Counted from the stretch's first letter, positions 4,654-29,347 are shown. The stretch: DNA of 29,467 nt from Candidatus Margulisiibacteriota bacterium (GCA_034723395.1 JAYEOW010000043.1:1-29467), one strand, 5' to 3'. The notes: generated from the letters alone by a model not told the origin. Translations and numbers: made by a program.

Positions 4654-4655
4654 GT

Positions 4656-4888: not shown

Positions 4889-4900
4889 CTCGAAAAGCCC

Positions 4901-4929
4901 TTGACAGATTAGCAAAAATAAAGCACACT
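4901..4929 (+). promoter_or_regulatory. Sigma70-type promoter TTGACA-N17-CACACT
   Basis: Perfect -35 and 17-nt spacer; an in-frame ATG begins 7 nt after the -10. Confidence 0.6.
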
Positions 4930-4935
4930 TTAGAT

Positions 4936-9215: not shown

Positions 9216-12200
9216 TTAAATGTTTTAAAGTTATTTTAATATTATTCGTTTTATTTTGTAGTACGTCAATGGCGATTGCTGAATTTTCTGTAACCAGGGT
9301 CAAGCCAATTGACTACAACCCCAAAATAGAAAAGTATGGAAATTATATAAACCATAACTATGGTGAATATCGTGGAGGAGCTTCTTATAAATATCACGAC
9401 GGGTTCGATTATTATGCAAGAGGGGATCAGGTACTCCCCGTTTCCCCTGGCACTGCCCACGTTTACCCTGATCTAACAAAGAAAGTAATAAAGTCAACAA
9501 TTCCGGTTAATGAATTTGTTGCAGTTGAGAATTTATTTATTGATCCGACAAAAACGACCTTGGTGTTTAAGCCCAATATCACAGTTGCAAGCATTGAGAG
9601 CTGCTCTATCGTGGATGGAACAAAACTTATTTTGAAACAAGGCTTGGCAGGGGAAAATGAAGGCTGGGGGCATTGTGTTATAGTTGATCATGGAACATTC
9701 CAAACTCGCTATGCTCATTTAAGCAGGATTGATGTGTCAGAGGGGCAATGGGTGGATACTTCAATTGTGTTGGGGTTATCGGGGAACACGGGAAAATCAA
9801 GCGGAGAACATCTTCATTTTAGCATGGGAAATAATGGAGCGACTAAAAATAATCTTGCTCCAACAAACACGGAGAATCCCATACTCGCGGGGTTGAAACA
9901 GCCAAAATACGGTAAGATTGAAAAAGTTGCCTGCCCTAATGGTTTTGACATAAGATTATTAGCAACAGGAAAAGACGGGACATTTGGCGGATCAAACGGT
10001 GTGATCTTGAGCGATGCGAATGAAACGATCAATATTCCGAAACCTGGGCAACCACTAAAAGCAGTTATTAGTGCTTATCATTATACAGGCAGGGCTTATA
10101 CAACTCCGTACAAGATCGAATTTGAAGTTGAAAAGATTAGAGGGGCAAATGATTTTGTTAAACGGAAACGGGAGATTGTATTTGATTCAATTGCCAATAT
10201 TAACAAGATGACCGTTCCGCCGTATGACTTTTCCCGACCTTATGTTACTCAATCTAAAAGGACAGAAGATTATTATTCGGTTAAATTTACGCCGACAGCT
10301 GGAAGATATAGAATTACTGCAAAAATATATTCCTGCTATAGAGATGGTCCAGGCGATACCGGTTTTCATCTGTCTGATCCCCTGGTGGCTGAAAGGGAAA
10401 TAACCGTTGGTTTGAATGGCGCCAATCTCGATTGGTACGATCCTGCTGTTTCCTATGCCTGGTTACCGGACGATATCGCAAGCCGGGGGATTATGCTGGC
10501 CAGTGTGCCGACGCCGGTTGGGGCGGCGGGAGTGACAGCGAGTGATGCAACTGCTACATCAATACCGGAAGTATTCTATGCTTACGCGAACAATAATATT
10601 ATAACCAGTAACCTTATTGACGTTGATCAAAACCTCCAGCAGAAAGCATTAATCGAAGCGCGATCGACGCCGGAAGCGGACTGGCTAATTGAGATCAGGA
10701 ATAAATCCGGAGGACCTCCGGATCGTATTTCTGTCCCCAAATGCGGCTGGTTAAAACAGGAATGGGGCGCCGGGAAATCTGCTGGAGAATATACCATTAC
10801 AGTTACAGCGAGCAACTCCGCGGGGATAACAACTTATGAATCTTATGACACCATTACGATTGATAATACCAAGCCATCCGCGCTGGTTTATACCGTCACA
10901 AACAGCGTATCGACTGCGGAGCAAACAATTTCAACTCGGATCAGGCCATCTGAAAATTTAAGAAGCATGCTTGTCAATGTGGTCAAAGATGGAGATTATA
11001 ATTCTTTAGTTGAAGAAAGGATCTATTCGACTCCTTTTGCCGAAAAGGATAAAGAAGAAGCGGTTGATTGGGAAGACGCTATTGCTTACCCAGATGGCTT
11101 TTATCGCCTGCAATACGTAATGACCGATGTGGCGGGAAATATTGCAAAGGCCTATTCGCCGATCGTATCAGTTGATAAGAGCGGGGATTATACCGCGCCT
11201 TCTACCACAATCGAAGTGTCTGAACCCGCGCTGCCTGAATTGCCGAAATGGGAAGAGCGGCCGAAAGTGTCGGATGTCGCGTTCGACGATTCAGGCAATG
11301 AATATGTGTTATATGGACGCTATGATAAATTAATTAAATATAATTCAGCAGGCACAATGATTGCCTCAGTTGAAAGCCTGCGCAATCCCCTTGGCCTAGC
11401 CGTTTCCCCCTCCGGCGACCGAGTCTATGTAGCGGATACGTATAATAATCGGATGTTGATTTATGATGGGAAGTTACAGCCAATCAAGGAAATTAAAGGG
11501 AAAGATGTTTATGTTATCTATGGTGATGTGGATTCATATAGTTGGGGATTGGGCGGCATGAATCATTCAGGCGATGCTGGGGGTGGCGAGCATAGTTATT
11601 GGGGAGAGCAATTTGGGTTGCCAGAAGATATTGCGATATTAGGTAATAATGTTTATGTTGCAGACAAAGAAAAACATCGCGTCCTGAAATATGATCAAAA
11701 TGGCAAGTGTGAGGTCTTCTCGAAATTAAAGGCCGATTTAAAGAATGAAGCCCGTAATGCTTATAATCAAAATAATGTAATTTCCGGACGAACTGTTGAT
11801 AGAGCGTTATTTTATTCAAATTCTCTGAACGATCATATTTACTTTGATAAAGGTTCGGTTGATAAAAGCTCTTATGATCGCGGATGGATAAAAGAAATGT
11901 ATGGACATGATAATCCTCCTGGAGCGGGCGATAGTCAATTATTTTTACCAGAGTCGGTTATCGTCGATAATTATAGCTACATCTACATCCTCGACACCGG
12001 CAACCACCGCATCCAGAAATTTTCTCCTGATGGCTCTTTTATTTCCAAATTCGGTTCTGAAGGAAGCGGTCCCGGCCAGTTTAAATCACCTCAGGGGATA
12101 TTTATAGACGAAGACAACCACATCTGGGTGGCTGATACCGGGAACCGGAGGATCCAGGAGTTTAAAAATGATGGGACATTTCTTAAATCCTGGGGTAACG

Positions 12201-15200
12201 CGGAGCTGTTAAGCAAACCGTTAAAATTGGTTGTAAGAAAGGTCGGCAAGAATAAGGCGGTCTATGTGGCGGACGGAGATAAGGACGAAGTCCAAATCTT
12301 CGGGGCTTCGCCGCCTACGGACTTTAGTTTGACGGAAACAGGAGAACAGTTCGTTTCCGGCCGAACATTCACTATCAGCTGGGCAACTTCCGAGGCCGAT
12401 TGGTATGGGCTGAAGAAATATGAAGTTTACGGCAGGACTATCTATGAGGGTATGGACGAAAGCAGTGAAGAATCATGGGTATATCTTAAGAAAAACATTT
12501 CTCCCTCGGAAAATTCCGTGGAAATAACTTTGCCTTACGATGGGATATACGATGTTAAAGTAAAAGCTGTTGATAATAATGGAAATTGGAGGGATTCCGA
12601 TGGGGGGTCATCTTCTGGTGATTCAAGAGACTCATCTCGAATCCTTAGGGCGACAATTGATGCTATCCCGCCCCTTGGCTTTACCCTCGAAGATCCGCCA
12701 GATGGTTATTTAATTGACGGTAAAGACGTAAGGATTGCCTGGAGTGAAGCGCAAGACGAGAATCTTGATTATTACGAGCTTGTGGTCGGTATTGATATTG
12801 ATGATATTCACGAATCAGCAATCTATTCCGCGACATTTGAAGCCGCTGCTACCAGGGAAGTCTGGTTGAAAGATTTGCCCATAGGAAAATATTATATTTT
12901 CATGGCCACTTTTGATAAAGCGGGACATTATTGTCAGGTTAACGGAACAACCGACGTTGCGGGATATAGCTGGCCTGATCTTGCTTCTAATTGGGCTGGC
13001 AAATGGCCGTCCTTTGAAATCGATCCCATTCCTCCCTGGGCTTTTTCCATTTCAAATATCTACGATGGCCAGTATTTTGACGACCGTGATGTAAAAATTG
13101 AGTGGAATGAGGCATATGATACGAATTTAGACCATTATGAAGTATATATCGGAACGGAACAGAATAATATAATGGGAAGCGCGGTATTTACGGCATCTAT
13201 TGAGGCTTCAGCCAGCAGGGAGTGTTGGGCGAATCTTCCCGGAGGGACCTATTGGATTTATATGCGCGCCTGTGACGATCTTGGCAACTATCGCGGCCTG
13301 GATGGAAAAACCAATAGTTCAAAACACGATCTGGATCGAACAGATAATTTAGTGTGGTTTGAAATAGACCATGAACCGCCAGATATTGCTTACGATCCAA
13401 CAGTTGCCCCTCCGGCAACTAATCCCCATTTCTCACCGAATAATGACGGCAAGAAGGATTCGACCATTATCAATTATTATGTTGGCGATGATTCCTATTG
13501 GAAAGTTAACTATCTGCGCATGGATGAGGTTTTGATAGATATTGAAGGAGAGATCATAAAGGATGGAGAGGTTGTAAGGAGCTGGACATCCCGTTCGCCG
13601 CCTGGCTGGAATGAGTTTATCTGGGATGGCGGTTCCCCTCTCCCCCTGGGAGAGGGGGCAGGGGTGAGGGCGCCTGACGGCACTTATACTATTAAAATCA
13701 CAGCTGCCGACAAGGCCCTCAACACCGCCGCTGATGAATCGCTTACCGTAGCAGTCGATACCACTCCGCCGGAGATTAATAACATTGTTAACTCCGGAAT
13801 ATTTTCTCCTAATGGGGATGGGGAGTTTGATATAGATACTTTGAGCTTTGAACTATCGGACAATTTAGCAGAAGAACTGGCCACAACCATTGATGTGTTA
13901 AATCCGGCAAATGTTGTAATAAGGAGCGTTGAGGAACCGCGACGTTTAGTCGCAGGTTCCGATTCCATGTCCGTGGTCTGGGATGGCAAAGTGGGTGAGG
14001 TGGTACCTGACGGTGATTATACCTATCTCATCACCACCACCGACCAGGCTGGCAATCAAACCATCAACGATTCGGCATCAGTAACAGTTGATACTACGCC
14101 ACCTGCTTTTTCAGATGTTTCAACCTCTCCAAAGAGAGAAGTTGCTTTTACAGAAGACTCAGGCGCCCTTGATATCAATTTTACCGTTTCAGAAACAGCC
14201 AATGTCAGGATGGGAATCTATGACAGCAATTATTCTATGATCAGAGATTATCTGATTTCTGCTGAAACTGGAATAGCCAATACAATCTCCTGGGACGGGA
14301 GAGACAGCTTCGGTTCGCTTGCCCCGGATAATACTTATATAACCTACGCTTTCTCTGCCACAGACCGGGTGGCAAACTCTTCAGGCTACGCGTCAACCGA
14401 TATTGTGAGGGTTAAAACTCCGGTTACCGGCATGGCTGGAAATATTATATATAGTCCGGATGGAGCGGTGAAGATCATTATCCCCGCGGGCGCGGTAGCG
14501 GAGGGAACAGAACTATATCTTGATATTTTTGATACCCCCCCTGAAACATATACAGTTAACGAGAAGGATAATATTACGTTAACTTATAAACTATATCCTG
14601 AAGACCTTGAATTAAATAAACAGGCGACCATGGTTATCCATTACGATGAGAGCGTCTTGAATTTTGAGCATCAGCCGGTTGAGCTCTGGCGAAGGGGTTC
14701 GGCCTGGACAAAACTATATGGCAATACTCATAGCGATACCTTTACGGCGTATATTGAGAAGAGCGGAGAGTTCGCGTTGTTTGCTGATCTGACTCCGCCG
14801 GCCCCGCCGGTTATTGGTCAGCCGGCTTCTCCAACCAAGGAAGAGTCGATAATCATTGCTGGAACAGCCGAGCCTTATTCGAAGGTAGATTTATGGATCA
14901 ATGGGCTCAAAAGAAGTCCGCCGGTAAATGCTGGCGTTGACGGTAATTTTTCCGCGGGCATAGTCCTTTCGGAGGGCCAGAATTCTATCTATGGACAGGC
15001 GACCGACCAAACCGGTAATGTAAGCTCCGATTCAGGGATTATCAATGTTGAATTAGACACCACCCCTCCGGATATCACTTTAATCTCGCCGCAAACCATT
15101 TATATCTCGCCCAATGGGGATGGAATAAACGATGAGGTGGCAATTTCCGCGGATACCGACGGTGTTTCGATTGTAATCTCCGTGCGGGATAGTCTTGGAG

Positions 15201-18200
15201 CTGTTCTGGCTTCAAGTAATTCGGATACGCTTACCTGGGAAGACCCGTCGGTTGGCGAAGGAACTTATATATATGTGGTTAAAGCCTTTGACGCGCTGGG
15301 AAATGAAGCTAGAAAGCAGGGAGAGATTATTGTTGATAGGACCCTTCCGGAGGCATACCTGGAAGCATCTCCTATAACTTCTATCATCTCAGGCAATCTT
15401 GCCCTTTCGGGAATTGCGGAAGACAGCAATTTTGAAAGATATATTCTGGAATATGGGGCGGGAGGAACTCCATCAAGCTGGACCGAGATCAAACAGGGTT
15501 TTGTCTCGATTAATTATCAAAAATTTGATGACTTTGATACAACTATCCTGGCGGATGGAATTTATACCTTTAGATTAAGGGTCTATGATAAAGCGGGAAA
15601 TTCAAATTCTTCTTTGCTGAGTAAGCGCGCCATCAATTCAGAACTTTATGGAGAGATATCATCACCTGTATTAAATCAGGTGATTACGGGAACGGCTGAG
15701 GTCCATGGAAACATCACCGGAACATATTTTGCGGAATACAGAGTAGAGTATGGAGTTGGGGCAAGCCCCGCTTCCTGGATTACGATTGTGCGCTCTACCA
15801 CTCTCCCGGCAACATCGCTTCTGGCAGCCTGGGATACAAGCCGGGTTCCTGATGGTAATTATACTCTAAGGTTAAATGTGATAAATATTGGTGGGCGTTC
15901 TACTTATAATACTATTCCGGTTGTAGTAGACAACGGAAATCCAGGAGTTTCTATCACTGTTCCGACTTCAAACGCGATCCTTGGAGGAAATATCGAAGTC
16001 GGCGCGGAGATTTCTGATCCGAATTTCTCTTATTATCAAGTCGAATACGCGAGTTCGGATGACCCGAACAATTGGCAAATCATTCAGGATCAGACTTATA
16101 CGATTTCAACTCCTCTGGCAACCTGGGAAACAACGGGGTTAAATGGTGATTATATTATTAAGGTGACAGTGGTTGATGTAGTGGACAATAGTTCATTCGG
16201 CACGGTTATCATCACGGTTGACAATACGACTCCGGAAGCGGCAATTACACAGCCGACTGCGGGTCAGATTTTGAATAATACTGTCCAGATTTCAGGCGCT
16301 GCCAACGATCGGCATTTTTCAGATTACAAATTAGAATATGGTTTTGGGGCTAATCCTGCAAGCTGGACAGAAATCACAACTTCAACTATTCAAGTGGCTG
16401 CTGGAGAACTCGGCAGTTGGGATACGTCTACCTTAGGAACGGATGGGATTTATACCATAAAGCTTACGGTTACCGATCAAGCCGGGAATAGCTCGACCAG
16501 CCCGGTGTCGTTAACCATTGACAATACCAATCCGACCGCTTCGATTGCTTTTCCAACCAATAATCTGGTTATCGCGGATACGGTAAATATTCTTGGAACA
16601 GCGATTGACGAGGCGCACTTTAAGGAATTTAAGGTTGAGTATGGGGAGGGGGAGAATCCTTCCAGCTGGACGCAAATCGGAAACATACACTCTTCCTCAG
16701 TCTTTGGTTCTACCCTTGAAGCTTGGGATACGACCGCGGTAACAGATGGGACCTATACTCTGAAGTTAACAGTCGCGGACTTGCCCGGTAATTCAAGCTT
16801 GGATCAGGCGCCGGTTATTGTAGACAACACGCCGCCGACGGTCTCTATTTCCAATCCTTCTTCCGGAGATATTCTTGCCGGCGCCATAAACATTGCGGGA
16901 ACAGTTTCTGATGACAATCTTGATTCTATACTTTTAGAATATCGGGAAGCTTCCAGTCCCGAATCCTGGCAGGCGATAGCGGCCATAAACCCTTCAAATA
17001 TTGTGAACGATACTATTTATGATTGGAGCGCGTCCAGTCTAAATGGAGATTATATCGTCAGAGTTACCGCAACCGATAAAACCGGGAAAACCACCAGCGA
17101 CGAAGCGGGAATTCGACTGGATAATATTGATCCGGTTATAAATATCACAGCGCCAACCAACGAGTCGATCAATACAGGCGTTGTGGACTTCACTGGAGAA
17201 ATCTCTGATCTAAACCTGGATCAATATACCATCAAATACGGTTACGGTATTGAGCCGACCAGGTGGTTTAGTTTGGCTTCTGACACTGCGTCAAAGACTG
17301 GAACTATATATTCCTGGGATACGCCGAATGTTAAAGATGGTTACTATACAATAAAGGTTGACGCGGCTGACAAAGCAGGAAATTCGTCCAACCGTGAATT
17401 TGTAATAACTATTGATAATGCACCGGCAGTTGCAAAAATTCATGAGCCGACAGCTAACCAGGTTGTAAAAGGAACTGTCGCGGTATCCGGGATTGCCTGT
17501 GATGCTGATTTTACCACGTACAATTTTAAAAAGTATGAAATTAGTGTAGGGGCAGGGCTTGTCCCTGTCCAATGGACAACTATCGAAAGCCTCGTTGTTC
17601 CTAAGATCAATGAGACCTTAGCTAACTGGAATACTGCTCCACTTGCTGATGGAACTTACACTTTGAGGTTGAGAGCGGAAGATATAAGCGGGATAACCGA
17701 AGATACTAAAACAATTGTTATCGACAACACCCTGCCAACCGCTTCAATTTCTTCTCCATCTCAAGGGCAAACCGTAAACGGAAGCATTGAAATAACCGGC
17801 ACAGCTTCGGATACTAATATTGCTGAATATAAAGTTTATTACAAACAATCTAGTTCCAGCACCTGGACAGAGATCGGCAGTGGAACCTCGCCCCTCGTTG
17901 CTTCGACCCTCGCCGCATGGGATACAACAAATGTTGGTGATGGATCATATTCGATAAAGCTTTTGGTAAAAGACCAGGCCGGAAGTGAAAGTGAAATTAC
18001 AAGAGATGTAACGGTTAATAATGATTTAGCAATTGTTAATGACTCAGCATCTCCTGCAATTATATCTCCTAATGGTGACGGAGTAGATGATGTCGCGGAA
18101 ATCGGCTACACTCTTTCTGAAAATAGTCCGGTAACTGTTAAAATCTATAAGAAGCCGCAGTATGATAAGTTTAAGTGGGAAGCGAAGGGGTTTGGGACTT

Positions 18201-21200
18201 ATTATCCATGGCAGGACTTTTCTTATACCATTAACGCATCTGGGACCAATCATCCAAACCAATATTTTGATTATACTTTGAGCGCTTCAGGAACAGAATA
18301 TCCGCCGCAGGTGTTTGATTGGAAGGTGAATGGGTATGGGGTGGAAACTTATTATACTTATTCGCCAAAGACTAGTCCTACCGCATATGCTTATGCAGAT
18401 GATGACAAAGGAGTAGGAGAAAGCTCCACATTTTATCTAAACCATGACCAAACACCAGGACGATTCTACTTTAAAGCTATAGCTGATGGGAACAGTGGTT
18501 GGGATGATGCAAGGAAATATTGGGTATACAGACAAAATGGAAGTGCGTGGGAGGAGGTTTATTACCACCCAACTTATTGCGCAGGGGAATGGAGTTACAT
18601 CGGAAATGCTTCTATTGCAGATAACGGAAGATCGCCTGAATCCACTTTTTATCTTTCGCAAACGAAGTCATTACCGTTTTATGTTGGGACGGATAATAAT
18701 TGCAAAACTTCTGAGATATGGATATACAGGAAAGAAGGAGCCTCCTGGATCACATTTCATCATGAATTAAACCCCGCCGCAAATAAGTGGTTTTGGAAAT
18801 CGCTGACAGGAGGATACCTGTATAAGATTAAGCTTCGAGTAGAACCAAAAAGCGGCACTTATACCAGCGGTGGATTTTACGTGGATAACTTTACTTGGTC
18901 CGCAGGGACTTATAAATTAAAGGTATGGCTCGATGTAGGAATGTGGGATAGTTGCCATGTATATATGTGGATGGATTATAAGCAGAAAAATACATTATAT
19001 TCAAATGTTTCCGACTCCGATTCAGGAAAAGCTACAGTTGATCGAAATAACAATATTGTTTCAGGAAGTGGTAGTGATGCCTATGGCATAACTCTTTCGC
19101 CTCAACATCCGGGCGGCGCCATCAGCGGACATGAGATTGGTCGGGGATATGGAAATTATTATCATGACTATGCAGCCAACCCCTACGTTTCAACTTCTAT
19201 AAGCAACACCACATTTAGCGGAAACACCTGTTCTGGAACAATCAATGCCAGTTATAATTATCCTGGCCATTTGTGGAGTAGTAGCGTGAATCCAAATAAC
19301 AAGAGCTGTAGATCGGGACCAGGCAGTCCTGTAAATTATTCCGAAAGTATAAACAGTCTTATTGCTGTTGATCCGGATGTTCCTAGTCCCAACTTTGCTC
19401 TTTCTGGTAATACGAACTCAAGGGTTTCTCTACACTTCAGTAACGATGGGGCGTCTGTTGTGGGGAGTACTTCTTATGCTCCATCTTGGAGTGGTTCGGA
19501 CAATGATCCAGATTCCTGTAATGCTTTGCAAGGAACAATTACTGTTTCAGAATCGATGTCTAATAAATTTGGCGCTCCAAACGCCTATCCTGATTACAGA
19601 GAATATTCAAGCTTTTCAGTCTCCGATAATAATCCAAATGTTTCGGTTTGGTTTAACAATAGCGGCACAACTTCGACCTCTGATCCGAGTGATTATTTAA
19701 GAGCGAGCACTACGTATTCCGAATCCTGGGATACCTCTGATGATCCGGCGATAGGGAGTGCTGGCTGGATAAAAAGCGTAGAAATTTCGGCGCCGTTTAA
19801 CTACGACGAATCGTCTCAATCGTTTTCAACTGAATATACGCCTCCTTCAGATGTGGTTCTGAGCAGCTGGACGGTAAACCTTAAGAACCCCGATGGAGGA
19901 GCAAGCGCAGATGTTGCGCTGGATGGCACACCAACCGCAGCCGGAGACTTTAATGTTAAAATCTCCGACAGCTTATTGGTCAAGACCCTACAATACAATG
20001 CTTCAACTTCTCCTGGCAATCAAACAATCGAATGGGACGGCAAAAATAATAGCGGAGCCTATGTTGACGACGGAGAATATATCTATTACATTTACGCTGG
20101 ACCAAACATTGTTAAAAAATCTGGCGTGATTAAGGTCGAAAGGTCTTCAGAAATTAGCTCCACTTCATTATCAGAAGAATATATTTCTCCGAACAGTGAC
20201 GGGATAAAAGATAGTACAGCTATCAGCTACACGCTCTCAGAAAACGCTACAGTTAATATTGAAGTATCAGACAGTGATGGAACAGTTGTTAAATCTTTCT
20301 CTGCTTCTGGGAATCAAGGTGCTAATTCATCTTCCTGGGATGGCAGGGATAATGGTGGAACTGTAGTGGAAGACGGAGAATATTTGGTTAAAATAAACGC
20401 GACTAACGGTAATGGCGCTTTGCGTACCAAAGAACTTGCAGTAACTAAAGATAACAATAGCTTGACAGCAGGGGATGTCCCGGCAGAACAGCTTACATCT
20501 TCAGGCAATGATCCGGTTTACTCCCCGGACAAATCAAAAATCGCTTATGTGAAAGATATATCCGGCAAGAAACAAATACACACAATGAATCTACTTACAA
20601 CTAACAACTTACAACTAACAACTGACGGCAATAACCTGCAGCCAGCATGGTCTCCGGATGGAACAAAGTTAACCTGTACTTCAGACCGTTCGGGTAACAA
20701 TGACATTTGGATTATGGATGCTGATGGAGGCAATCAAAGGCAAATAACTTCCGATAATGATTCGGAGACTTCGCCGGCTTTTTCGCCGGACGGACAAAGG
20801 ATTGCTTATGCTTCAAATCGAACCGGAGAACTTGGTATTAACAAATGGAATATCTGGACGGTGGATCTGGACGGCACAAATCCAGCTCAAATAACCGCGG
20901 ATGAGAATACGGCCAAAGATGACTATCCGAGCTTTTCGCCGGACGGGAAAAAGATCGCTTTTGCTTCGGACCAAAGCGGGAATTTTGATGTTTGGAGTGT
21001 GAATCTCGATGGCAGCTCTAAAGCACAGATAACATCAAGTTCGGAAACAGAAACAATGCCTGCCTGGGCTCCAGATGCCTTAAAAATTGTTTACGCGAGA
21101 GATAACGATATATATCTTAGAGAGCTTTCAGGCGGGAGCGAAGTAAACATCGGAAGCGGAGAAAATCCTGCCTGGTCAAGAGACGGAACGGAGGTTGTCT

Positions 21201-23086
21201 ATAACACGACGGACGGCAAAATCTACGCTAAAAAAGTTTATACAGGAGCGCTGACCGGGGTTATAACTCAGCCTATCCTAAATCAAACCCTAACCGGCCT
21301 GGCTGAGATTCGTGGAACGGCGCTAGACACGAATTTCGAAAGCTATCAGCTTGAGTTCAGTCCAAACAGCATGCCCTATAGCTGGACAGAACTGGCTAAT
21401 TCAAACACCCCAGTCAGCAATGGAATTCTCGGGGTTTGGAATACGGCAGATGTTCAGGATGGAGAATATATCCTGCGGTTAACTGTTAATGATAAAGCGG
21501 GAAATAGTTTGCAGAATTCCGTTGTGGTGAATGCCGATAATGACAACTGGAAACTGACCATAACCGATCTAAAACAGTTAACTTCTGATGAAGCCTGGGA
21601 TATTGAGCCCGCCTGGTCGCCGGATGGAACCAAGCTTGCTTTCTCTTCAATCCGATCCGGTAACTATGAGATCTGGACAATGAATGCGAATGGGACCGGA
21701 TTGCAGAATATTACCAATAATTCAGCTTTAGATGTTAAACCATCCTGGTCGCCGGACGGAACTAAGGTTGCCTTTGTTTCAGACAGGTCAGGAAATAAAG
21801 ATATCTGGGTAGCAAACGCGGATGGCTCCGGAGTTCCGCTGCAATTAACTGTACTTACCATAGTAGATACAAATCCAACCTGGGCCCCTGATGGCTCAAA
21901 GATTGCCTTTGCCTCAGACCGGTCGGGTAACTTTGATATCTGGCTGGTTAATTCCGACGGGACCGGGACTCCGGCCAAACTTACTTCCGGCGAAGCCTTT
22001 GATAAAGAGCCAAGCTGGTCGCAATTTGGAATTGCCTTTACTTCGGACAGATCAGGCGATAAAGAAATCTGGATGATTGAAGATATCAATAACCCCAATC
22101 CATTCAGGTTGACCTATAATTCGGCTGAAGATAAAGAGCCTAGTTGGGCGCCAATTGCTATTCCGCTTTCTGATGGAACCAGCCGCCCGCTAATAACATT
22201 TACTTCCACCCGAAATGATAATCTCGATATCTGGGTGATGGATACAGACGGGATCGATCAGTCAAAGTCACTGACCGATTATACAAATGTTGATTGTAAT
22301 CCCGCCTGGTCGCCGGATGGGTCCAGAGTTGCCTATGCCTCTTATAAAGACGGCCAGTACGATATCTGGGTGATGAATTTTGGTATTAATGCCACGGTGT
22401 TGGGCGTCGCGCCGCAGCAATCCACCACCCTCGAAACCCCAACCCTTGTCTCGCCGGACGACGATTCAGATGTAACCTCCCTCCGCCCGACTTTTGAGTG
22501 GCAGCACAGAAAAGGAGACACCCAGGAATATACGATCGATCTGGCTAAGAACGATAGTTTTGCGATCGATCACCAAACCTTTACCAAGTCTCCCAATACC
22601 GGATCGGTCGATGAAAATGATCCGACCCTTTATCATTACACCTACTCGATTCATGAATTCGATCCGGGATTAGACAGGGATACGTATTACTGGAAAGTTA
22701 CCGCAACCTCAACCAGCGAATCAGCAACGTCCGAGGTCCGGTCATTCACCGTTGCGCCGCAACTGACCCTAACCGGCGTCACCAACTATCCAAACCCGTT
22801 CAACCCGAATAACCAATCGACCAGTATCCGCTATCGGTTGGGCGCGGACGCGGACAGCGTAAAGATCAGGATCTATGATATTACCGGCTCGCTGGTCAAG
22901 CAGATCGATAATTGCCCGACCGACGGCGAAGGATCAAGCGTATGGAGTAAATATCAGGACGTTGATTGGAACGGCCGTAACGGCCGCGGAGATTTGGTGA
23001 GGAACGGGATCTATCCTTTTGAGATTATTGCGCGATTGGGAGATAAGTCGGTCTCCGCGAGAGGCAAGGTAGCGGTGCTGAAATGA
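9212..23086 (+). CDS. Giant (4624 aa) secreted multidomain protein: signal peptide, M23 metallopeptidase, NHL propeller, FN3, FlgD/SPNGDG Ig domains, ~10 Big-like repeats, two PD40/TolB propellers, C-terminal T9SS type A/FlgD-like sorting domain
   Basis: HDGFD...YAHL...GNTGKSSGEHLHF (M23). VYVADTYNNR and DTGNHRIQKF (NHL). Repeated P.WSPDG.K (PD40). Ends NYPNPFNP...IRIYDITGSLVK...WNGRN...NGIY...GKVAVLK. Confidence 0.93.
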   Translation: MIKCFKVILILFVLFCSTSMAIAEFSVTRVKPIDYNPKIEKYGNYINHNYGEYRGGASYKYHDGFDYYARGDQVLPVSPGTAHVYPDLTKKVIKSTIPVNEFVAVENLFIDPTKTTLVFKPNITVASIESCSIVDGTKLILKQGLAGENEGWGHCVIVDHGTFQTRYAHLSRIDVSEGQWVDTSIVLGLSGNTGKSSGEHLHFSMGNNGATKNNLAPTNTENPILAGLKQPKYGKIEKVACPNGFDIRLLATGKDGTFGGSNGVILSDANETINIPKPGQPLKAVISAYHYTGRAYTTPYKIEFEVEKIRGANDFVKRKREIVFDSIANINKMTVPPYDFSRPYVTQSKRTEDYYSVKFTPTAGRYRITAKIYSCYRDGPGDTGFHLSDPLVAEREITVGLNGANLDWYDPAVSYAWLPDDIASRGIMLASVPTPVGAAGVTASDATATSIPEVFYAYANNNIITSNLIDVDQNLQQKALIEARSTPEADWLIEIRNKSGGPPDRISVPKCGWLKQEWGAGKSAGEYTITVTASNSAGITTYESYDTITIDNTKPSALVYTVTNSVSTAEQTISTRIRPSENLRSMLVNVVKDGDYNSLVEERIYSTPFAEKDKEEAVDWEDAIAYPDGFYRLQYVMTDVAGNIAKAYSPIVSVDKSGDYTAPSTTIEVSEPALPELPKWEERPKVSDVAFDDSGNEYVLYGRYDKLIKYNSAGTMIASVESLRNPLGLAVSPSGDRVYVADTYNNRMLIYDGKLQPIKEIKGKDVYVIYGDVDSYSWGLGGMNHSGDAGGGEHSYWGEQFGLPEDIAILGNNVYVADKEKHRVLKYDQNGKCEVFSKLKADLKNEARNAYNQNNVISGRTVDRALFYSNSLNDHIYFDKGSVDKSSYDRGWIKEMYGHDNPPGAGDSQLFLPESVIVDNYSYIYILDTGNHRIQKFSPDGSFISKFGSEGSGPGQFKSPQGIFIDEDNHIWVADTGNRRIQEFKNDGTFLKSWGNAELLSKPLKLVVRKVGKNKAVYVADGDKDEVQIFGASPPTDFSLTETGEQFVSGRTFTISWATSEADWYGLKKYEVYGRTIYEGMDESSEESWVYLKKNISPSENSVEITLPYDGIYDVKVKAVDNNGNWRDSDGGSSSGDSRDSSRILRATIDAIPPLGFTLEDPPDGYLIDGKDVRIAWSEAQDENLDYYELVVGIDIDDIHESAIYSATFEAAATREVWLKDLPIGKYYIFMATFDKAGHYCQVNGTTDVAGYSWPDLASNWAGKWPSFEIDPIPPWAFSISNIYDGQYFDDRDVKIEWNEAYDTNLDHYEVYIGTEQNNIMGSAVFTASIEASASRECWANLPGGTYWIYMRACDDLGNYRGLDGKTNSSKHDLDRTDNLVWFEIDHEPPDIAYDPTVAPPATNPHFSPNNDGKKDSTIINYYVGDDSYWKVNYLRMDEVLIDIEGEIIKDGEVVRSWTSRSPPGWNEFIWDGGSPLPLGEGAGVRAPDGTYTIKITAADKALNTAADESLTVAVDTTPPEINNIVNSGIFSPNGDGEFDIDTLSFELSDNLAEELATTIDVLNPANVVIRSVEEPRRLVAGSDSMSVVWDGKVGEVVPDGDYTYLITTTDQAGNQTINDSASVTVDTTPPAFSDVSTSPKREVAFTEDSGALDINFTVSETANVRMGIYDSNYSMIRDYLISAETGIANTISWDGRDSFGSLAPDNTYITYAFSATDRVANSSGYASTDIVRVKTPVTGMAGNIIYSPDGAVKIIIPAGAVAEGTELYLDIFDTPPETYTVNEKDNITLTYKLYPEDLELNKQATMVIHYDESVLNFEHQPVELWRRGSAWTKLYGNTHSDTFTAYIEKSGEFALFADLTPPAPPVIGQPASPTKEESIIIAGTAEPYSKVDLWINGLKRSPPVNAGVDGNFSAGIVLSEGQNSIYGQATDQTGNVSSDSGIINVELDTTPPDITLISPQTIYISPNGDGINDEVAISADTDGVSIVISVRDSLGAVLASSNSDTLTWEDPSVGEGTYIYVVKAFDALGNEARKQGEIIVDRTLPEAYLEASPITSIISGNLALSGIAEDSNFERYILEYGAGGTPSSWTEIKQGFVSINYQKFDDFDTTILADGIYTFRLRVYDKAGNSNSSLLSKRAINSELYGEISSPVLNQVITGTAEVHGNITGTYFAEYRVEYGVGASPASWITIVRSTTLPATSLLAAWDTSRVPDGNYTLRLNVINIGGRSTYNTIPVVVDNGNPGVSITVPTSNAILGGNIEVGAEISDPNFSYYQVEYASSDDPNNWQIIQDQTYTISTPLATWETTGLNGDYIIKVTVVDVVDNSSFGTVIITVDNTTPEAAITQPTAGQILNNTVQISGAANDRHFSDYKLEYGFGANPASWTEITTSTIQVAAGELGSWDTSTLGTDGIYTIKLTVTDQAGNSSTSPVSLTIDNTNPTASIAFPTNNLVIADTVNILGTAIDEAHFKEFKVEYGEGENPSSWTQIGNIHSSSVFGSTLEAWDTTAVTDGTYTLKLTVADLPGNSSLDQAPVIVDNTPPTVSISNPSSGDILAGAINIAGTVSDDNLDSILLEYREASSPESWQAIAAINPSNIVNDTIYDWSASSLNGDYIVRVTATDKTGKTTSDEAGIRLDNIDPVINITAPTNESINTGVVDFTGEISDLNLDQYTIKYGYGIEPTRWFSLASDTASKTGTIYSWDTPNVKDGYYTIKVDAADKAGNSSNREFVITIDNAPAVAKIHEPTANQVVKGTVAVSGIACDADFTTYNFKKYEISVGAGLVPVQWTTIESLVVPKINETLANWNTAPLADGTYTLRLRAEDISGITEDTKTIVIDNTLPTASISSPSQGQTVNGSIEITGTASDTNIAEYKVYYKQSSSSTWTEIGSGTSPLVASTLAAWDTTNVGDGSYSIKLLVKDQAGSESEITRDVTVNNDLAIVNDSASPAIISPNGDGVDDVAEIGYTLSENSPVTVKIYKKPQYDKFKWEAKGFGTYYPWQDFSYTINASGTNHPNQYFDYTLSASGTEYPPQVFDWKVNGYGVETYYTYSPKTSPTAYAYADDDKGVGESSTFYLNHDQTPGRFYFKAIADGNSGWDDARKYWVYRQNGSAWEEVYYHPTYCAGEWSYIGNASIADNGRSPESTFYLSQTKSLPFYVGTDNNCKTSEIWIYRKEGASWITFHHELNPAANKWFWKSLTGGYLYKIKLRVEPKSGTYTSGGFYVDNFTWSAGTYKLKVWLDVGMWDSCHVYMWMDYKQKNTLYSNVSDSDSGKATVDRNNNIVSGSGSDAYGITLSPQHPGGAISGHEIGRGYGNYYHDYAANPYVSTSISNTTFSGNTCSGTINASYNYPGHLWSSSVNPNNKSCRSGPGSPVNYSESINSLIAVDPDVPSPNFALSGNTNSRVSLHFSNDGASVVGSTSYAPSWSGSDNDPDSCNALQGTITVSESMSNKFGAPNAYPDYREYSSFSVSDNNPNVSVWFNNSGTTSTSDPSDYLRASTTYSESWDTSDDPAIGSAGWIKSVEISAPFNYDESSQSFSTEYTPPSDVVLSSWTVNLKNPDGGASADVALDGTPTAAGDFNVKISDSLLVKTLQYNASTSPGNQTIEWDGKNNSGAYVDDGEYIYYIYAGPNIVKKSGVIKVERSSEISSTSLSEEYISPNSDGIKDSTAISYTLSENATVNIEVSDSDGTVVKSFSASGNQGANSSSWDGRDNGGTVVEDGEYLVKINATNGNGALRTKELAVTKDNNSLTAGDVPAEQLTSSGNDPVYSPDKSKIAYVKDISGKKQIHTMNLLTTNNLQLTTDGNNLQPAWSPDGTKLTCTSDRSGNNDIWIMDADGGNQRQITSDNDSETSPAFSPDGQRIAYASNRTGELGINKWNIWTVDLDGTNPAQITADENTAKDDYPSFSPDGKKIAFASDQSGNFDVWSVNLDGSSKAQITSSSETETMPAWAPDALKIVYARDNDIYLRELSGGSEVNIGSGENPAWSRDGTEVVYNTTDGKIYAKKVYTGALTGVITQPILNQTLTGLAEIRGTALDTNFESYQLEFSPNSMPYSWTELANSNTPVSNGILGVWNTADVQDGEYILRLTVNDKAGNSLQNSVVVNADNDNWKLTITDLKQLTSDEAWDIEPAWSPDGTKLAFSSIRSGNYEIWTMNANGTGLQNITNNSALDVKPSWSPDGTKVAFVSDRSGNKDIWVANADGSGVPLQLTVLTIVDTNPTWAPDGSKIAFASDRSGNFDIWLVNSDGTGTPAKLTSGEAFDKEPSWSQFGIAFTSDRSGDKEIWMIEDINNPNPFRLTYNSAEDKEPSWAPIAIPLSDGTSRPLITFTSTRNDNLDIWVMDTDGIDQSKSLTDYTNVDCNPAWSPDGSRVAYASYKDGQYDIWVMNFGINATVLGVAPQQSTTLETPTLVSPDDDSDVTSLRPTFEWQHRKGDTQEYTIDLAKNDSFAIDHQTFTKSPNTGSVDENDPTLYHYTYSIHEFDPGLDRDTYYWKVTATSTSESATSEVRSFTVAPQLTLTGVTNYPNPFNPNNQSTSIRYRLGADADSVKIRIYDITGSLVKQIDNCPTDGEGSSVWSKYQDVDWNGRNGRGDLVRNGIYPFEIIARLGDKSVSARGKVAVLK
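13635..13671 (+). repeat. REP-like palindrome inserted in frame (SPLPLGEGAGVRA)
   Basis: Hairpin CCCCTCTCCC-CCT-GGGAGAGGGG followed by GGGGTGAGGGC; same family as 29188-29295. Confidence 0.8.
20593..20626 (+). repeat. Heptamer tandem repeat (ACTTACA/ACTAACA) inside the CDS
   Basis: acttaca actaaca acttaca actaaca actgac, within LLTTNNLQLTTD. Confidence 0.75.
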
Positions 23087-24060
23087 GAAATAAAATCCTA
23101 ATGACCAAATCCCAAATCCCAACAATGTATGTCCTGCGGGCATTTATTATAATAATTATTTCATTGTTTGGATTTTTGATTTTTGATTTTGGATTTAATA
23201 TAGCGTACGCTCAAGCTCAGGGAGGACAAGACATCGCCGTCCTTAAGGCCGGCGTAGGCGCCCGTCCCTTAGGAATGGGCGGCGCATTCACCGCCGTAGC
23301 TGACACCGCCGATGCTCCATGCTGGAATCCGGGCGGCCTTGGTTTTGTTGACGATAACGAGATTACGTCAATGCAAACTAAGCTTTCAACCGACGCCGAT
23401 CATTATTACGTTAGTTATGTACGGCCTGCATTTGGCGGAACGCTTGGAATATCGTGGATCCAGGTTGGCTTGGGAACTATAACCGAAACATCTTCAGAAG
23501 TAGATGAACACAATGAAGTAATCGACCTGAGTACTTTTAGCTATTTTTCAAACGCGTATATGCTCTCATACGGTAAAAAGGTAAGTGAAAAACTATCTCT
23601 CGGATTAACCGCGCAATATTTGACTTCGGATATGACAAGTATCGACGGCGGACAGGCTTCTGGTTATAGCATAACACCAGGACTGCTTTTGAGGACAGGA
23701 AAAGGGTGGAACATCGGATTAAAAGTTGAAGGGGTTATCAATTCCTTGCAGTGGGGGACGGGGACGGTTGAGCAGGCGCCTGCCAAATTATGCTTAGGGT
23801 TTGCATACCAGAAGTCGAACCCTGGATTATTCGCGATCGATATTTCGCAAACAATGAAGTCCGGTTATGTTCCTGAAGCTTCGGTTGGCTACGAATGGAA
23901 TAAAGATAGTTTGTCTCTTCGGCTCGGATATGTCGAAAGCGGTTTAACTGCCGGAGCTGGATTTGTTTCAGGGAATGCCAGAGTCGATTACGCTTATATC
24001 ACCCAGAGGAATCTTACGACCTCTAATGTGCATAGGATTTCATTGACTGGGATTTGGTAA
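23083..24060 (+). CDS. porV: PorV/UPF0164-family outer-membrane beta-barrel (T9SS shuttle-like)
   Basis: Signature GVGARPLGMGGAFTAVAD...WNPGGL, plus LRLGY, VDYAY and terminal HRISLTGIW. ATGA overlap with the giant gene. Confidence 0.85.
   Translation: MRNKILMTKSQIPTMYVLRAFIIIIISLFGFLIFDFGFNIAYAQAQGGQDIAVLKAGVGARPLGMGGAFTAVADTADAPCWNPGGLGFVDDNEITSMQTKLSTDADHYYVSYVRPAFGGTLGISWIQVGLGTITETSSEVDEHNEVIDLSTFSYFSNAYMLSYGKKVSEKLSLGLTAQYLTSDMTSIDGGQASGYSITPGLLLRTGKGWNIGLKVEGVINSLQWGTGTVEQAPAKLCLGFAYQKSNPGLFAIDISQTMKSGYVPEASVGYEWNKDSLSLRLGYVESGLTAGAGFVSGNARVDYAYITQRNLTTSNVHRISLTGIW
23093..23196 (+). repeat. Inverted heptamer arrays (AAATCCC-type then TTGGATT/TTTGATT-type) in the porV signal-peptide region
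   Basis: aaatcct aatgacc aaatccc aaatccc ... ttggatt tttgatt tttgatt ttggatt. Confidence 0.65.
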
Positions 24061-24271: not shown

Positions 24272-25147
24272 GTGAAAAGGTTAGTTGTATTACTTACATT
24301 ATTGCTAGTTTCCTCAGCCGCCTTCGCCGCTTCAGGCGCGAGCTATAAGATAAGCCCCGAAGGGCTGTTGCCAACGGCCGGAACTTCAGAAGGGACAACC
24401 TATTCTGTTCAGCATGCGTCCGGCGATGTGTCAGGAATAACTTCCAGCGCTGCTTACTCGTCTAACGCCGGCTTTATCGCCTCATCCGTAACTTACGCAA
24501 CCTCAGAGGCCGGAGTGCCCAGGATCGAGAACCTGCTCTTCGATGGCCGTGCGATTGTTGCTGACGATTACGTTAACAGGGACGTAACTATCACTGCCAC
24601 CGTTACCGATGATGCCGGTTCCATTGATACCGCCGCCAGCTCGGTCGAAATCGACTCTGCCGTGATCGCATTTGACGCATTGAATGGAAACTCAACCTAC
24701 GATGCAGTAACCGCCCAGCTAACCTATTCACCCGCGACTCCATTTGCTAACGGTACCCATACTTTTACGATCGTTGCCCGTAACGATGCCGGGAATTCTT
24801 CTTCGGGCACAATAACTTTTACCGTTAATAATAACGGCATCGCCCTGGTCGACGGCACCGTATTTAATTTCCCCAATCCTTACGATCCAGGGACCGGCAA
24901 TACCGAGATCGGTTACCGCCTGAATAAAGATGCAAATATAACGGTCTATCTTTTTAACAGTCTCGGCCAGCGGGTCTGGAAGAGAGAATATGCGGCAGGG
25001 AGCGAAGGGGGCCACGCCGGCTATAATTTTATCCTTTGGGACGGTAAATCAGATTTTGGCGATATGGTTGGTAACGGGATCTACTTTATCAGGGTTGTTG
25101 CTGGCGGTTCGATAGTCGGGAAAGGCAAACTGGCGGTAATTAAGTAG
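24272..25147 (+). CDS. Secreted Ig-like protein with C-terminal T9SS type A/FlgD-like sorting domain
   Basis: Signal peptide MKRLVVLLTLLLVSSAAFA; ends NFPNPYDP...IGYRL...WDGK...GNGIYF...GKLAVIK. Confidence 0.9.
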   Translation: MKRLVVLLTLLLVSSAAFAASGASYKISPEGLLPTAGTSEGTTYSVQHASGDVSGITSSAAYSSNAGFIASSVTYATSEAGVPRIENLLFDGRAIVADDYVNRDVTITATVTDDAGSIDTAASSVEIDSAVIAFDALNGNSTYDAVTAQLTYSPATPFANGTHTFTIVARNDAGNSSSGTITFTVNNNGIALVDGTVFNFPNPYDPGTGNTEIGYRLNKDANITVYLFNSLGQRVWKREYAAGSEGGHAGYNFILWDGKSDFGDMVGNGIYFIRVVAGGSIVGKGKLAVIK

Positions 25148-25148
25148 G

Positions 25149-28100
25149 CTAGAAGTTCAATGTCCCGTCAAATGTTACCATCTGCGCGTGCAGGTCATCT
25201 TTATCTCCGCCCGGGAGCCGATTGTCAAAGCTTACCGTCTTATATGCCAGATTAAAAACGATTGCCGAGATGACTGGGTTGTCCTGCGGTACGGTAAATT
25301 CAATATTGATTGTCCGCGTCTTCTTTATATAGTCGATGTCGGGGGCCATCCCACCTGCCAGCACCTCTCCGCCATTATACTCTTCGTCCTGGATTACCGT
25401 TACCTTTCCCCAATCAAGAACCTTATAACCCGCATCTATTCCGAGATTCGCTTTGTGGCGCGGAGATACAGTGGGGATCGAAGTTATTTTAAGGTCGTAG
25501 TTGGCCGATGCGGAAAATGGACTTTCGGGAGTATAGTCAATCCCGATTCCAGTGGTCTGCGCAGTTGCTTGAAGCGGCGAATCGATCGTGCTAGTAAATT
25601 GGTAATTGGTCTTACTAAATACTGGAGTAATCGAAATAACCGGGGCAGGGGACAAAGTTAAACTATAATTTTGGCTAAAACTATCGGTGGTAGTAGTAAC
25701 TGCTTCAATACTCCCTGAAGGAGCAGTTTCAACCCGGTAATATTTGCCAAAACTTGTGTCAAGGCTTGCTTTTTCAAAGGTAAAAACATTCCAGCTTCCT
25801 GAATAATTATCTGAGTTACCGCTGCTCTCTCTTCCCGTATCATGGATGATCATATCTTCGGTGTGTACCCATCCGGTGGAAAGATAATCCAGTGGGGAGA
25901 GTTCGACCTTGGTGGTCCCGGTTTCGCTCATCGGATTTTTGCCTTCTACGATAACTGTCGGTTTTTCCGAGCGGGTAAGGTCGTAGCTTAACGCGAGTAT
26001 ATTTATCGGGACCAGATCGGTGTGGTAGGTAACATTCTTGCTGACTTCGTTCCCTTCGGTAGTTGAGAAATAATTAAATGTTTTATGCTCTAACAATTTT
26101 GCGTAGGCAATCCATTTTTCCAGGGTGCCGTGAGTCAGGTCGAGGGCAAGGTTATATCCAAGGTCTTTAGTCGTGCTTTTGCTGGTTAGCGCTTCCTGGC
26201 TGGTCCGGTATCCGGATATCGTGTAAGGTTCGTTGAACTGCCAGTCGAGCCCGCCCTTTATTCTTTTAGTTAATCCTACTCCCTGGGTAAGATGAAAATA
26301 TTTGTTTCTGGAAAAGGTGTTGGCCAGAAAATCGCGGCCGTCAGTCAAGCTGCCATTGTAAGAATGGACATAGGATATCGGGCCAAAATTTAATCCGGCC
26401 GGATTAAAACTCCCATTGTATTCATTTGTTTCAGAATGCGCGCTGTACGATCCTCCGGTGGTTAAGGGATCCCCCTTATTTTCAACGTTCCGCAATCCCA
26501 TACTAATCCCCGCCCATCCGAAAGGATTGAATCCCATGTTGTAAGAGCGGTCAAAACTCCGGTTAAACGATTCGCGGCTTCCGCTGACCGGCGAATTATT
26601 TTCGATGTAGGCAAAACCCATTGTAAGATCGTGAAGATTGGCGCGTGTATAGTTGGCTGATAAATCGCGGCGGCTGGTCCCGGGGCCGATCGCAGTGCCG
26701 CCGAGCGGGGTAAAGTCAAGCCCGATCGCCCTTTCACTATATTTCATCGTCAAGTCGCCCAAGTTGGTTTCAAGCCCGTATTTATAGGCTATATCGACCG
26801 TTTCTCCGACCCGGGCAATCCCTCCCGGATCGGGATAATCGTATTCCACTACTACCGCGTCCGGAGTTCCCAGCGTTATGTAGAAAAAATTGATCGTTCC
26901 TGTCTCATAATCGATAATATAATCGATATCGCGGTTGCGCAGGTAGTTATTTACATAAACTTTTTCGGTCCCGTCAATAATTGCCGGGGTGTTATGTTTG
27001 ATTACACTGACCGTGTGGGTCGGAGGGATAAAACTTACCGCCTCGATTGTGTGTTCGGACACGGTTACGTTATCGGTCTTACTGGTGGCAAAGTTGCCGG
27101 TAAATTTAAGGATATCGCCGAGCTCATATTCGGCATCAAAGCCGGTGATATCCTGTTTAATATTGTTTCCGATCGGTCCTGCCGGCGGGATGTACTGGAA
27201 GTGGGCCGAATAACTTTTTTCCGGGCCCAGCTCTCTATTAAATGTAATGTATGGGGTATCTTTATAATAATTGATCGAATAACCGAGATCACCCGCGTCC
27301 ATTTCAAAAGAGCTGTTGCGGGTATAGACTGTTGTATCGGCCGATCCGGTATCCCAGACCTCGACATTTTCGCTTCCCGGGACCAGGTTGCGATAACCGC
27401 GGATGTAATACGGACCACGTCCCCCGTTCCCTGTCCCGGTGTGCCGGCTGATAATGCTTCTGCGATAGGTATAATTTACGGAAACTTCCTGGGTCGCCTC
27501 GATCGTAGCCAATAATTTAATAGTTCCGGTATAATACCCGTCAGTAAGGTCATTGCGATCGTTAATATAAGCGAGCCTTGCGTTTGGGGTAACCTTTGTG
27601 TAGCCGGTCACCGGGTCGGCTTCGGTCGAAGGGACGGTGTAATCAACTTCCGGGGTTAGAATTCTCCCGCCAACCGATATATTAATTGATCCTCCTTCTT
27701 CGGTCGGGAGGATCGGGTAGCGGGAGAGATAGATTGTATTATTGTTTGCGATAATATCTGCTGCATTCAAGCTCTCGGAGTTGGTGGCGCTAGCTGCCCC
27801 CAGGCCGCTTTTGGCCGACTCTCTTAAATAGGTCATGCCTACGGTTAGTTCCTGTTTTAATCCGCCAGGAGCTTTTTTGTAGGGAGATATTTTTACTATA
27901 TATACGTAATCAACCTTGATTGCGGCCGTTTTGGGAACTTCATAGTTGAAGATCAATCTCCCGTTTTCATAATCGATATGATAGTCGAGGTCTGGAGTAA
28001 CCGGGTGGTCGTTAATAAATACCTGTTCACTGCAGGGAATAATATCGCTATTATATAGTGTGTAAGGCCCGCGCCCGCTGATGGCGGGTAAAACCTCTTG

Positions 28101-29312: not shown

Positions 29313-29319
29313 TGCGCAA

Positions 29320-29347
29320 ATAGTAACATAATAAAAAACGCTGTCAA
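29320..29347 (-). promoter_or_regulatory. Sigma70 promoter TTGACA-N16-(TGn)TACTAT, with the -35 supplied by the IS terminus
   Basis: The minus strand reads TTGACA gcgttttttattatgt TACTAT ttgcgca ATG. Confidence 0.6.

Follow-up and report, generated by a model that had tools for sequence, protein, structure and literature searches.

A split FlgD-type immunoglobulin domain with a probable two-armed side branch and an exchangeable distal cassette in a giant, predicted surface protein of a Candidatus Margulisiibacteriota bacterium

Antigen I/II (SpaP) presents a variable-domain tip on a hairpin stalk made of two distant repeat regions, in which an alpha-helix is wound with a polyproline helix, and phage tail fibers exchange receptor-binding tips on conserved shafts. 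The interruption of one domain by another is described in two reports. In RTX (type I secreted) fibrillar adhesins, immunoglobulin (Ig)-like extender domains contain breaks from which ligand-binding domains project off the fiber axis, and in AhLap of Aeromonas hydrophila the nesting is three levels deep, with an insert in a vWFA domain that itself lies in a beta-roll (PMC12077191). In the pilus-tip adhesin RrgA of Streptococcus pneumoniae, D3 lies within D2, and D2/D3 lie within D1 (PMC5333627). Here, we analyze a 29,467-nucleotide stretch of DNA (the window) from a Candidatus Margulisiibacteriota bacterium (GCA_034723395.1, JAYEOW010000043.1:1-29467). A single open reading frame (ORF) of 4624 amino acids (aa) lies at positions 9212 to 23086, plus strand, and its frame is open throughout. 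The explanation that we favor, and consider probable from sequence comparison and structure prediction, is that it encodes a giant surface fiber in which a split FlgD-type domain carries a two-armed stalk with an exchangeable, ligand-contacting cassette at its end.

According to this explanation, the giant protein would be a secreted cell-surface fiber of a small-genome bacterium, and one of its Ig domains, of the type shared by FlgD and the C-terminal domains (CTDs) of the type IX secretion system (T9SS), would be split, the chain leaving after strand C and returning about 600 aa later to supply the remaining strands. Starting and ending at one hairpin, between VTVKIY and LVKTLQ, the insert would project sideways from the fiber. 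The branch would consist of an outgoing arm with three or four strands of 16 aa, a cassette of 105 to 233 aa and a returning arm with three or four beta-rich units, each of 70 to 100 aa, and the outgoing strands would most likely pack into sandwiches made mainly of the returning units, giving the stalk. The cassette would be swapped as a unit between lineages while the stalk and the rest of the fiber are conserved, and it would most likely be the portion of the branch to make contact with a ligand, which is probably a glycan or protein on the surface of another cell.

The initial annotation had proposed that a domain beginning with ISPNGDGVDD resumes about 600 aa later at LVKTL, whereas the next copy of this domain is contiguous. 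Both statements were borne out, and the coordinates that it gave for the insertion (positions 18155 to 19966, aa 2982 to 3585 of the giant ORF) were correct. ISPNGDGVDD begins at aa 2951 and VTVKIY at aa 2974; the interruption follows VTVKIYKK (aa 2981), and the domain resumes with LVKTLQ at aa 3589. The segment from ISPNGDGVDD to VTVKIYKK (aa 2951 to 2981) resembles the first three strands of an FlgD-type domain, and LVKTLQ...WDGKNNSGAYVDDGEYIYYIYAG (from aa 3589) resembles the remainder of that domain. The N-half of the split domain (aa 2945 to 2981, strands A to C; positions 18044 to 18154, plus strand) and the C-half (aa 3589 to 3645; positions 19976 to 20146, plus strand) were compared with the next FlgD-type Ig domain (aa 3658 to 3740; positions 20183 to 20431, plus strand), which served as an internal reference and matches FlgD_ig without a break at 50.6 bits. 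Local alignment to this contiguous next copy (aa 3650 to 3745) gave z-scores against shuffled sequences of 15.2 for the N-half and 8.8 for the C-half. On a profile built from the contiguous next copies of 12 family members (the next-copy profile), the coverage was complementary, the N-half occupying nodes 2 to 41 (37.5 bits) and the C-half nodes 50 to 84 (31.0 bits). Both halves are homologous to complementary parts of one uninterrupted domain. Pfam FlgD_ig (PF13860) matched within aa 2940 to 3653 at 28.8 bits, above its curated cut-off of 27, on aa 3561 to 3625, and the N-half was matched separately by positions 4 to 36 of the related CHU_C profile (23.0 bits, below its cut-off of 27). At the level of sequence, the split of one FlgD-type Ig domain is solid.

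The main structural alternative, without any nesting, would make aa 3546 to 3645 a complete domain and the N-half (aa 2945 to 2981) an orphan remnant that starts a different domain. It draws on the Pfam alignment, which counts against our explanation in that FlgD_ig positions 7 to 71 align without a break to aa 3561 to 3625; part of the returning arm may replace, or add to, the N-half. The contiguous alignment arises because FNVKISDS, the last strand of the returning arm, placed just before LVKTLQ, resembles strand C, and joining this look-alike to the C-half added 3.9 bits in the next-copy profile. However, aa 3546 to 3588 alone, directly before the C-half, scored -0.4 bits against that profile, compared with 37.5 bits for the N-half. 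In two orthologs, moreover, the FlgD_ig match begins only at profile position 21 to 23, with CHU_C positions 4 or 6 to 36 on the N-half, a pattern that appears to fit a split better than a complete C-terminal domain, and the N-half is conserved in all ten sequences of the set described below.

Structure prediction bears on the same alternative from both sides. AlphaFold2 was run on the window segment (715 aa, 12-row alignment) and on the shortest ortholog, P0004 (from locus L004, 507 aa). The window model was poor, with a mean predicted local distance difference test score (pLDDT) of 42.7, a predicted template modeling score of 0.26 and pLDDT values of 25 to 45 in both FlgD halves. No FlgD fold was seen in it, as the absence of nesting would have it, and the model was unusable for the FlgD halves or the tip; the best match by VIA-align had a Z of 3.4, so that no fold was assigned. 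Jelly-roll-like rows over window-model residues 139 to 336 had Z values of at most 3.0 and were discounted as evidence. The best of five P0004 models had pLDDT values of 57 to 77 in the N-half, 72 in the outgoing units, 60 to 83 in the returning arm and 74 to 81 in the C-half. VIA-align of this model against the PDB returned 41 chains at a Z of at least 8, and all 50 matches listed aligned 74 to 102 residues of one Ig/Fn3-type domain, spanning from residues 1 to 7 at one end to residues 490 to 507 at the other. Among the matches were 8jmw_A (Z 11.2, root mean square deviation [rmsd] 1.9 Å, 90 residues aligned), PorU (6za2_B, Z 10.4) and FlgD itself (3osv_A, Z 8.7, rmsd 2.2 Å, 80 residues aligned, 26% identity, range 7 to 490), the last in a row with the low-confidence stretches trimmed.

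Since each match aligns no more residues than one domain contains but stretches over the entire chain, the two halves come together as one sandwich in the ortholog model. This pairing was not forced by the input alignment, whose rows in the columns concerned were all orthologous split domains. A Foldseek search of the PDB with the P0004 model gave 0 matches at an E value of ≤0.001, the outcome expected for a discontinuous domain. We have moderate confidence that the flanking halves form a single FlgD-like sandwich in the ortholog model. The prediction of one Ig fold with a true insertion was upheld in the ortholog model, but the window's own model failed to reproduce it. Other points also detract: the mean pLDDT of the P0004 model was 49.7 (32 to 40 in the other four), this ortholog is 41% identical to the window protein over the segment, and contacts in the models are inferred indirectly from alignment ranges. 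The halves are united even in rows with the low-confidence stretches trimmed, and we consider the reading without nesting very unlikely.

Relatives were collected in three ways. A search with the insert of 1.84 billion cluster representatives returned 7 proteins at an E value of ≤0.001, and a word-indexed search of 90% clusters added four further long relatives. A scan of metagenome contigs used patterns for the generic N-half motif, and one of the 80 loci kept (L008) carries the insert. One relative (P0011) bears the NCBI name Candidatus Saganbacteria. Of 146 species genomes in the phylum of the window, 3 had a match at an E value of ≤1e-10, one of them being the genome from which the window comes (1.68 Mb, 97% complete), where there is a single copy. 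The set of ten sequences used below consists of the window protein, L008, P0002, P0003, P0004, P0005, P0010, P0011, P0012 and P0013. All nine relatives that cover both landmarks keep the split, with a landmark distance of 407 to 634 aa and an insert of 399 to 626 aa, compared with 607 aa in the window; no uninterrupted version of the domain was found among them. The initial annotation had raised the question of whether homologs lack or swap the insert; none of the nine lacks it, and its distal part is swapped, as shown below. The split is not an assembly accident, since the same layout recurs in nine additional sequences, which come from other assemblies. Such an insertion could in principle result from chimeric assembly, from an intein or from the target of a diversity-generating retroelement, but the frame is open throughout, the GC content of the insert (0.39 to 0.45) is that of the flanks with no shift in composition, no DNA repeat of the tip occurs elsewhere in the window, and the junction residues are KK/PQ and SDS/LL with no match to an intein family. 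With no tip repeat elsewhere in the window, no shift in composition and no intein match, a retroelement target, an intein and foreign DNA were rejected as its origin, and we regard artifact or mobile insertion as a whole as scarcely conceivable.

The arrangement resembles that described for the split domains of RTX adhesins (PMC12077191): an Ig-like extender of a giant fiber is interrupted by a passenger that begins and ends at one loop, so that its termini are adjacent and it would point sideways, and the chain then returns to finish the domain. Unlike the RTX adhesins, the giant protein has neither RTX nonapeptides nor a type I signal and instead has a T9SS-type tail and a PorV/PorQ-family neighbor. 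The host domain here is of the FlgD type and is split after its third strand, whereas the RTX extenders are split after the first, and the passenger here is no single recognizable domain but a putative two-armed repeat stalk of 400 to 630 aa with an exchangeable end. No GGxGxD motif was present in the giant protein, and no RTX family was among its Pfam matches. Judged from its sequence, the protein is built to work like the RTX split-domain design without belonging to the RTX adhesin family. The design itself is known from other bacterial adhesins; peculiar to this case are the unusual length and layering, the putative stalk of two repeat arms and a single scaffold with unrelated end cassettes. 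In giant surface proteins that are otherwise featureless, split domains are becoming a practical signpost to the ligand-contacting parts. This locus would extend the design, known from RTX and sortase-anchored adhesins, to an uncultured lineage with small genomes and a protein of the T9SS type, with a passenger that can be a long paired-repeat stalk instead of a single domain.

The insert falls into three parts. The outgoing arm (aa 2982 to 3048; positions 18155 to 18355, plus strand) contains four units of 16 aa with the pattern [YH]P.Q.F.[YW]..[LIV].[AG].G, which start in phase at aa 2982, 2998, 3014 and 3030, in agreement with the four or so repeats initially annotated; each unit is predicted to be one long beta-strand. 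The distal variable cassette, or tip (aa 3049 to 3265; positions 18356 to 19006, plus strand), has no known family. Within it lie two modules with the motif STFYL, at aa 3072 to 3128 (positions 18425 to 18595, plus strand) and aa 3144 to 3197 (positions 18641 to 18802, plus strand). The initial annotation had described these as homologous, with the second apparently inserted into the first; the homology stands (z 6.5), but the modules lie in tandem, about 15 aa apart, and no analysis that was run shows nesting. The returning arm (aa 3266 to 3588; positions 19007 to 19975, plus strand) has four units of about 70 to 100 aa and ends with the strand FNVKISDS. Ser, Thr, Asn and Gly make up 44.9% of it, compared with 32.5% of the remaining protein. 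Longer repeats ending in [AG]S..Y...W had been proposed for this arm, and the exact motif does occur, exactly twice (aa 3418 and aa 3498), with a variant longer by one residue after aa 3345; the similarity between the units is modest, with a z of 4.2 for the two units of about 75 aa (B and C) and of at most 2.0 for the other pairs. With the insert as the query, Pfam returned no family (only DUF7538, at an E value of 0.33) and a PDB sequence search returned 2 matches, both at E values above 1. With the tip, the best ESM Atlas score was 0.82, in the range of chance, and the Atlas holds no structure for it.

Both repeat arms are conserved in all ten sequences, four of which have one outgoing unit fewer. 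The initial annotation had further suggested that both arms contribute strands to complete the domains of the branch, and this part of its proposal is only weakly indicated. The only confident stretches of the window model are residues 81 to 100, which hold outgoing units 3 and 4, and residues 410 to 480, in the returning arm. In this model, 40 of the 50 VIA-align rows listed bridge residues 70 to 96 to residues 411 to 494 with only 38 to 88 residues aligned, which suggests that outgoing and returning pieces are packed together in it; these rows all have a Z of ≤3.4 and describe the geometry of the model only, not a match to a fold. The arms also vary together. The outgoing arm is 65 or 49 aa long and the returning arm 317 to 336 or 244 to 270 aa, and the short forms coincide in P0003, P0004, P0005 and P0013, so that unit numbers are matched in all ten sequences with no mixed form. 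The four sequences lack a counterpart of the 16-aa unit at aa 3014 to 3029 (positions 18251 to 18298, plus strand; the placement of the gap among the repeats is ambiguous) and of a returning unit of about 73 aa at aa ~3355 to 3427 (positions 19274 to 19492, plus strand).

Sequential folding is a competitor of paired arms. The domain would still be split, but the branch would be a loop of ordinary domains that do not complete each other, the 16-aa repeats forming a beta-meander of their own and the returning units self-contained small Ig-like domains. The size of those units, 70 to 100 aa, is that of complete small Ig domains, and both models predict consecutive 16-aa units as long strands joined by turns of 3 to 4 residues, as in hairpins. 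Nor can the matched indels reach significance, because on the tree of the flanking sequence they amount to 2 changes and 2 independent concordant contrasts (sign test, P = 0.5); in P0003, moreover, the first returning unit is of the other flavor, and one cassette replacement could account for the short form there. Set against this are the bridging rows, the matched unit numbers and the shortness of the outgoing arm, whose three or four strands in 49 to 65 aa can hardly fold alone, while the chain must return to the hairpin from which it started. On these three grounds, it is likely, although weakly indicated, that strands from both arms build the stalk, and we consider a branch of purely sequential domains unlikely. 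A stalk with paired arms would resemble antigen I/II, in which two distant repeat regions likewise hold a binding domain at their end, but both arms here are predicted to be beta-strands.

A more elaborate form of the branch can be envisaged, which we advance only tentatively and consider doubtful. In it, three or four split beta-sandwiches would be serially nested, as in a matryoshka doll, within the split FlgD domain, each made of one 16-aa strand from the outgoing arm and further strands from the returning arm, giving five or six levels of nesting; the rungs would change only as matched out-and-back pairs, and the innermost, swappable cassette, of which there are at least six unrelated kinds in this small lineage, would retarget a fiber bearing an M23 peptidase to partner or prey cells. 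The register of one strand per rung is a hypothesis. As to the nested order, the outermost level (the FlgD halves) comes from the ortholog model, and the inner levels come from the matching of units and from window-model ranges at a Z of ≤3.4. RrgA (PMC5333627) offers a parallel, with serially nested beta-sandwiches made of N- and C-terminal pieces and an adhesive domain that is innermost in sequence and outermost in space. Compared with RrgA, the giant protein would have more levels, built from repeats, if the rung model is right. It also differs from RrgA in that it has no LPxTG motif (LP.TG was sought across the 4624 aa) and no vWA domain was found in it by Pfam. If true, rung-by-rung nesting would represent an uncommon construction for a rigid projection and a hard test case for structure prediction.

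The distal cassette has a history different from that of the protein that carries it. A tree built from 523 flanking residues, with 533 of 554 alignment columns kept, resolved three groups: the window protein with L008 and P0003 (support, 99/97), P0002 with P0010 and P0012 (81/92), and P0004 with P0005 and P0013 (100/100), P0011 adjoining the third. The tips sort differently. The window, P0002 and P0013 share tip class I (z 53 to 70), P0003, P0010 and P0005 share class II (z 38 to 43), and the tips of L008, P0012, P0011 and P0004 are unlike any other, all other pairs having a z of ≤3.0, which gives at least 6 mutually unalignable types among the 10 sequences. Each flank group holds one class I tip, one class II tip and one unique tip, and 7 changes are needed on the tree. 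By approximately unbiased (AU) tests, the flank data reject monophyly of class I (p-AU = 7e-61) and likewise of class II (p-AU = 5e-9), although it counts against these tests that the classes and groups were named after the tree had been seen. The boundary is sharp between the window protein and its nearest relative, L008: in bins of 50 aa, identity is 74 to 96% across aa 2393 to 3042 and 60 to 92% across aa 3343 to 4392, compared with 8 to 22% across aa 3043 to 3292. On this sequence evidence, exchange of the cassette between lineages is solid. As in phage tail fibers, unrelated distal cassettes sit on a conserved shaft and are distributed against the phylogeny of the remaining protein; in contrast to them, the protein here is a predicted cellular surface protein and the side branch would be monomeric.

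Low identity between the window protein and L008 occurs outside the insert as well. A second sharply variable stretch lies at aa 4393 to 4492 (positions 22388 to 22687), just before the C-terminal tail, where 16 of 48 and 18 of 39 aligned residues are identical in two 50-aa bins, compared with 44 to 46 of 50 in the preceding bins. In the Ig-repeat region at aa 1943 to 2342 (positions ~15036 to 16237), identity is 22 to 56% per 50-aa bin, compared with 74 to 96% further downstream. The low identity upstream of aa ~2340 suggests that the fiber is a mosaic beyond the insert too.

A role of the tip in binding a ligand or receptor is suggested by its position, by the exchange of cassettes and by its richness in aromatic residues. 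Trp, Tyr and Phe account for 13.0 to 20.5% of the tips (20.5% in the window), which are 105 to 233 aa long, and for 7.9 to 9.8% of the remainder of the respective proteins, a difference present in all ten sequences. It is also conceivable that the nested branch is real and its variable end is no receptor-binding site, serving instead as a shield or decoy against phages or grazers, as an oligomerization knob or as an unrecognized enzyme. This would agree with two results. No ligand-binding family was found in any tip by Pfam, ESM Atlas or PDB sequence searches, which speaks against a binding role; Pfam searches of a further four tips and of three complete ortholog segments likewise showed no family in the tips, with one row at the chance level (E value, 0.3). 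In addition, tips of the same class from different flank groups are 38 to 52% identical, no more than their flanks (56 to 71%), so that the classes must be old and not recent imports; recent transfer of tips was rejected on this comparison. Yet the cassette forms the distal end of a branch whose stalk is conserved, aromatic richness is common to all ten tips even though most cannot be aligned with one another, and in RTX adhesins projection from a split domain marks the ligand-binding domains (PMC12077191). We judge a nonbinding tip to be decidedly unlikely, and favor a ligand-contacting cassette. The ten sequences, with one conserved scaffold and at least six unrelated end cassettes, constitute a natural experiment that points at the residues to test for binding.

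Display of the giant protein at the cell surface is the most likely outcome predicted from three features: a hydrophobic, signal-peptide-like N terminus, a T9SS-like tail and an overlapping PorV/PorQ-family gene. The tail, which comprises the last 128 aa, is similar to T9SS C-terminal domains, with scores close to, and below, the thresholds of TIGR04183 (21.6 bits; cut-off, 23) and of Pfam Por_Secre_tail (18.9 bits; cut-off, 27), so that no profile for a type A C-terminal sorting domain scores above its cut-off. The PorV/PorQ-family gene (positions 23083 to 24060, plus strand; NF033709, 107.4 bits; cut-off, 90) overlaps the stop codon of the giant gene by 4 nucleotides (ATGA) and supplies a linked T9SS shuttle or outer-membrane component. 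Pfam matches along the giant protein comprise an M23 peptidase, NHL and PD40 propellers, many Ig domains of the Big_13 type and several of the FlgD_ig/CHU_C type. No signs of a prophage were found around the gene. A literature search found no paper that combines "Saganbacteria" with "T9SS," and for "Saganbacteria" with "giant," none of the matches listed concerns this protein according to their titles and the beginnings of their abstracts.

Together with the PorV/PorQ-family gene, two further genes form a T9SS-like set around the giant gene. A 291-aa protein (positions 24272 to 25147, plus strand) has a type A sorting tail (28.7 bits; cut-off, 23), and a 1430-aa protein (positions 25149 to 29441, minus strand) has a short SprA/Sov-like stretch (40.6 bits, far under the cut-off of 200) and weak phage-tail-like rows. 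At its other end, the giant protein opens with an M23 peptidoglycan-peptidase domain (aa 146 to 211; positions 9647 to 9844; Pfam, 56.2 bits; cut-off, 28.7); NCBIfam rows for MepM/ShyA-type endopeptidases stay under their cut-offs. Considered from sequence, the M23 domain and a targeting branch together hint at action on the walls of other cells.

Upstream of the surface-protein cluster are two Ser/Thr protein kinase genes (positions 2 to 1108 and 3304 to 4653, plus strand; Pkinase, 131.5 and 135.3 bits), with a 552-aa ORF without a family match between them. After the second kinase gene, short segments copied from elsewhere in the locus, some distance away, make up a mosaic (positions 4653 to 4893). 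Positions 4653 to 4710 copy the start region, with the ribosome site, of the gene at 6495 (98% over 58 nucleotides), positions 4706 to 4776 copy the end of that gene, at 8328 to 8398 (83% over 71 nucleotides), and positions 4779 to 4893 copy an internal part of the PorV-like gene, at 23390 to 23504 (89% over 115 nucleotides). The mosaic has the look of a scar, left where most of a second copy of the cluster was deleted, and an AAA_14/DUF4143 gene (positions 4843 to 6165) begins within it.

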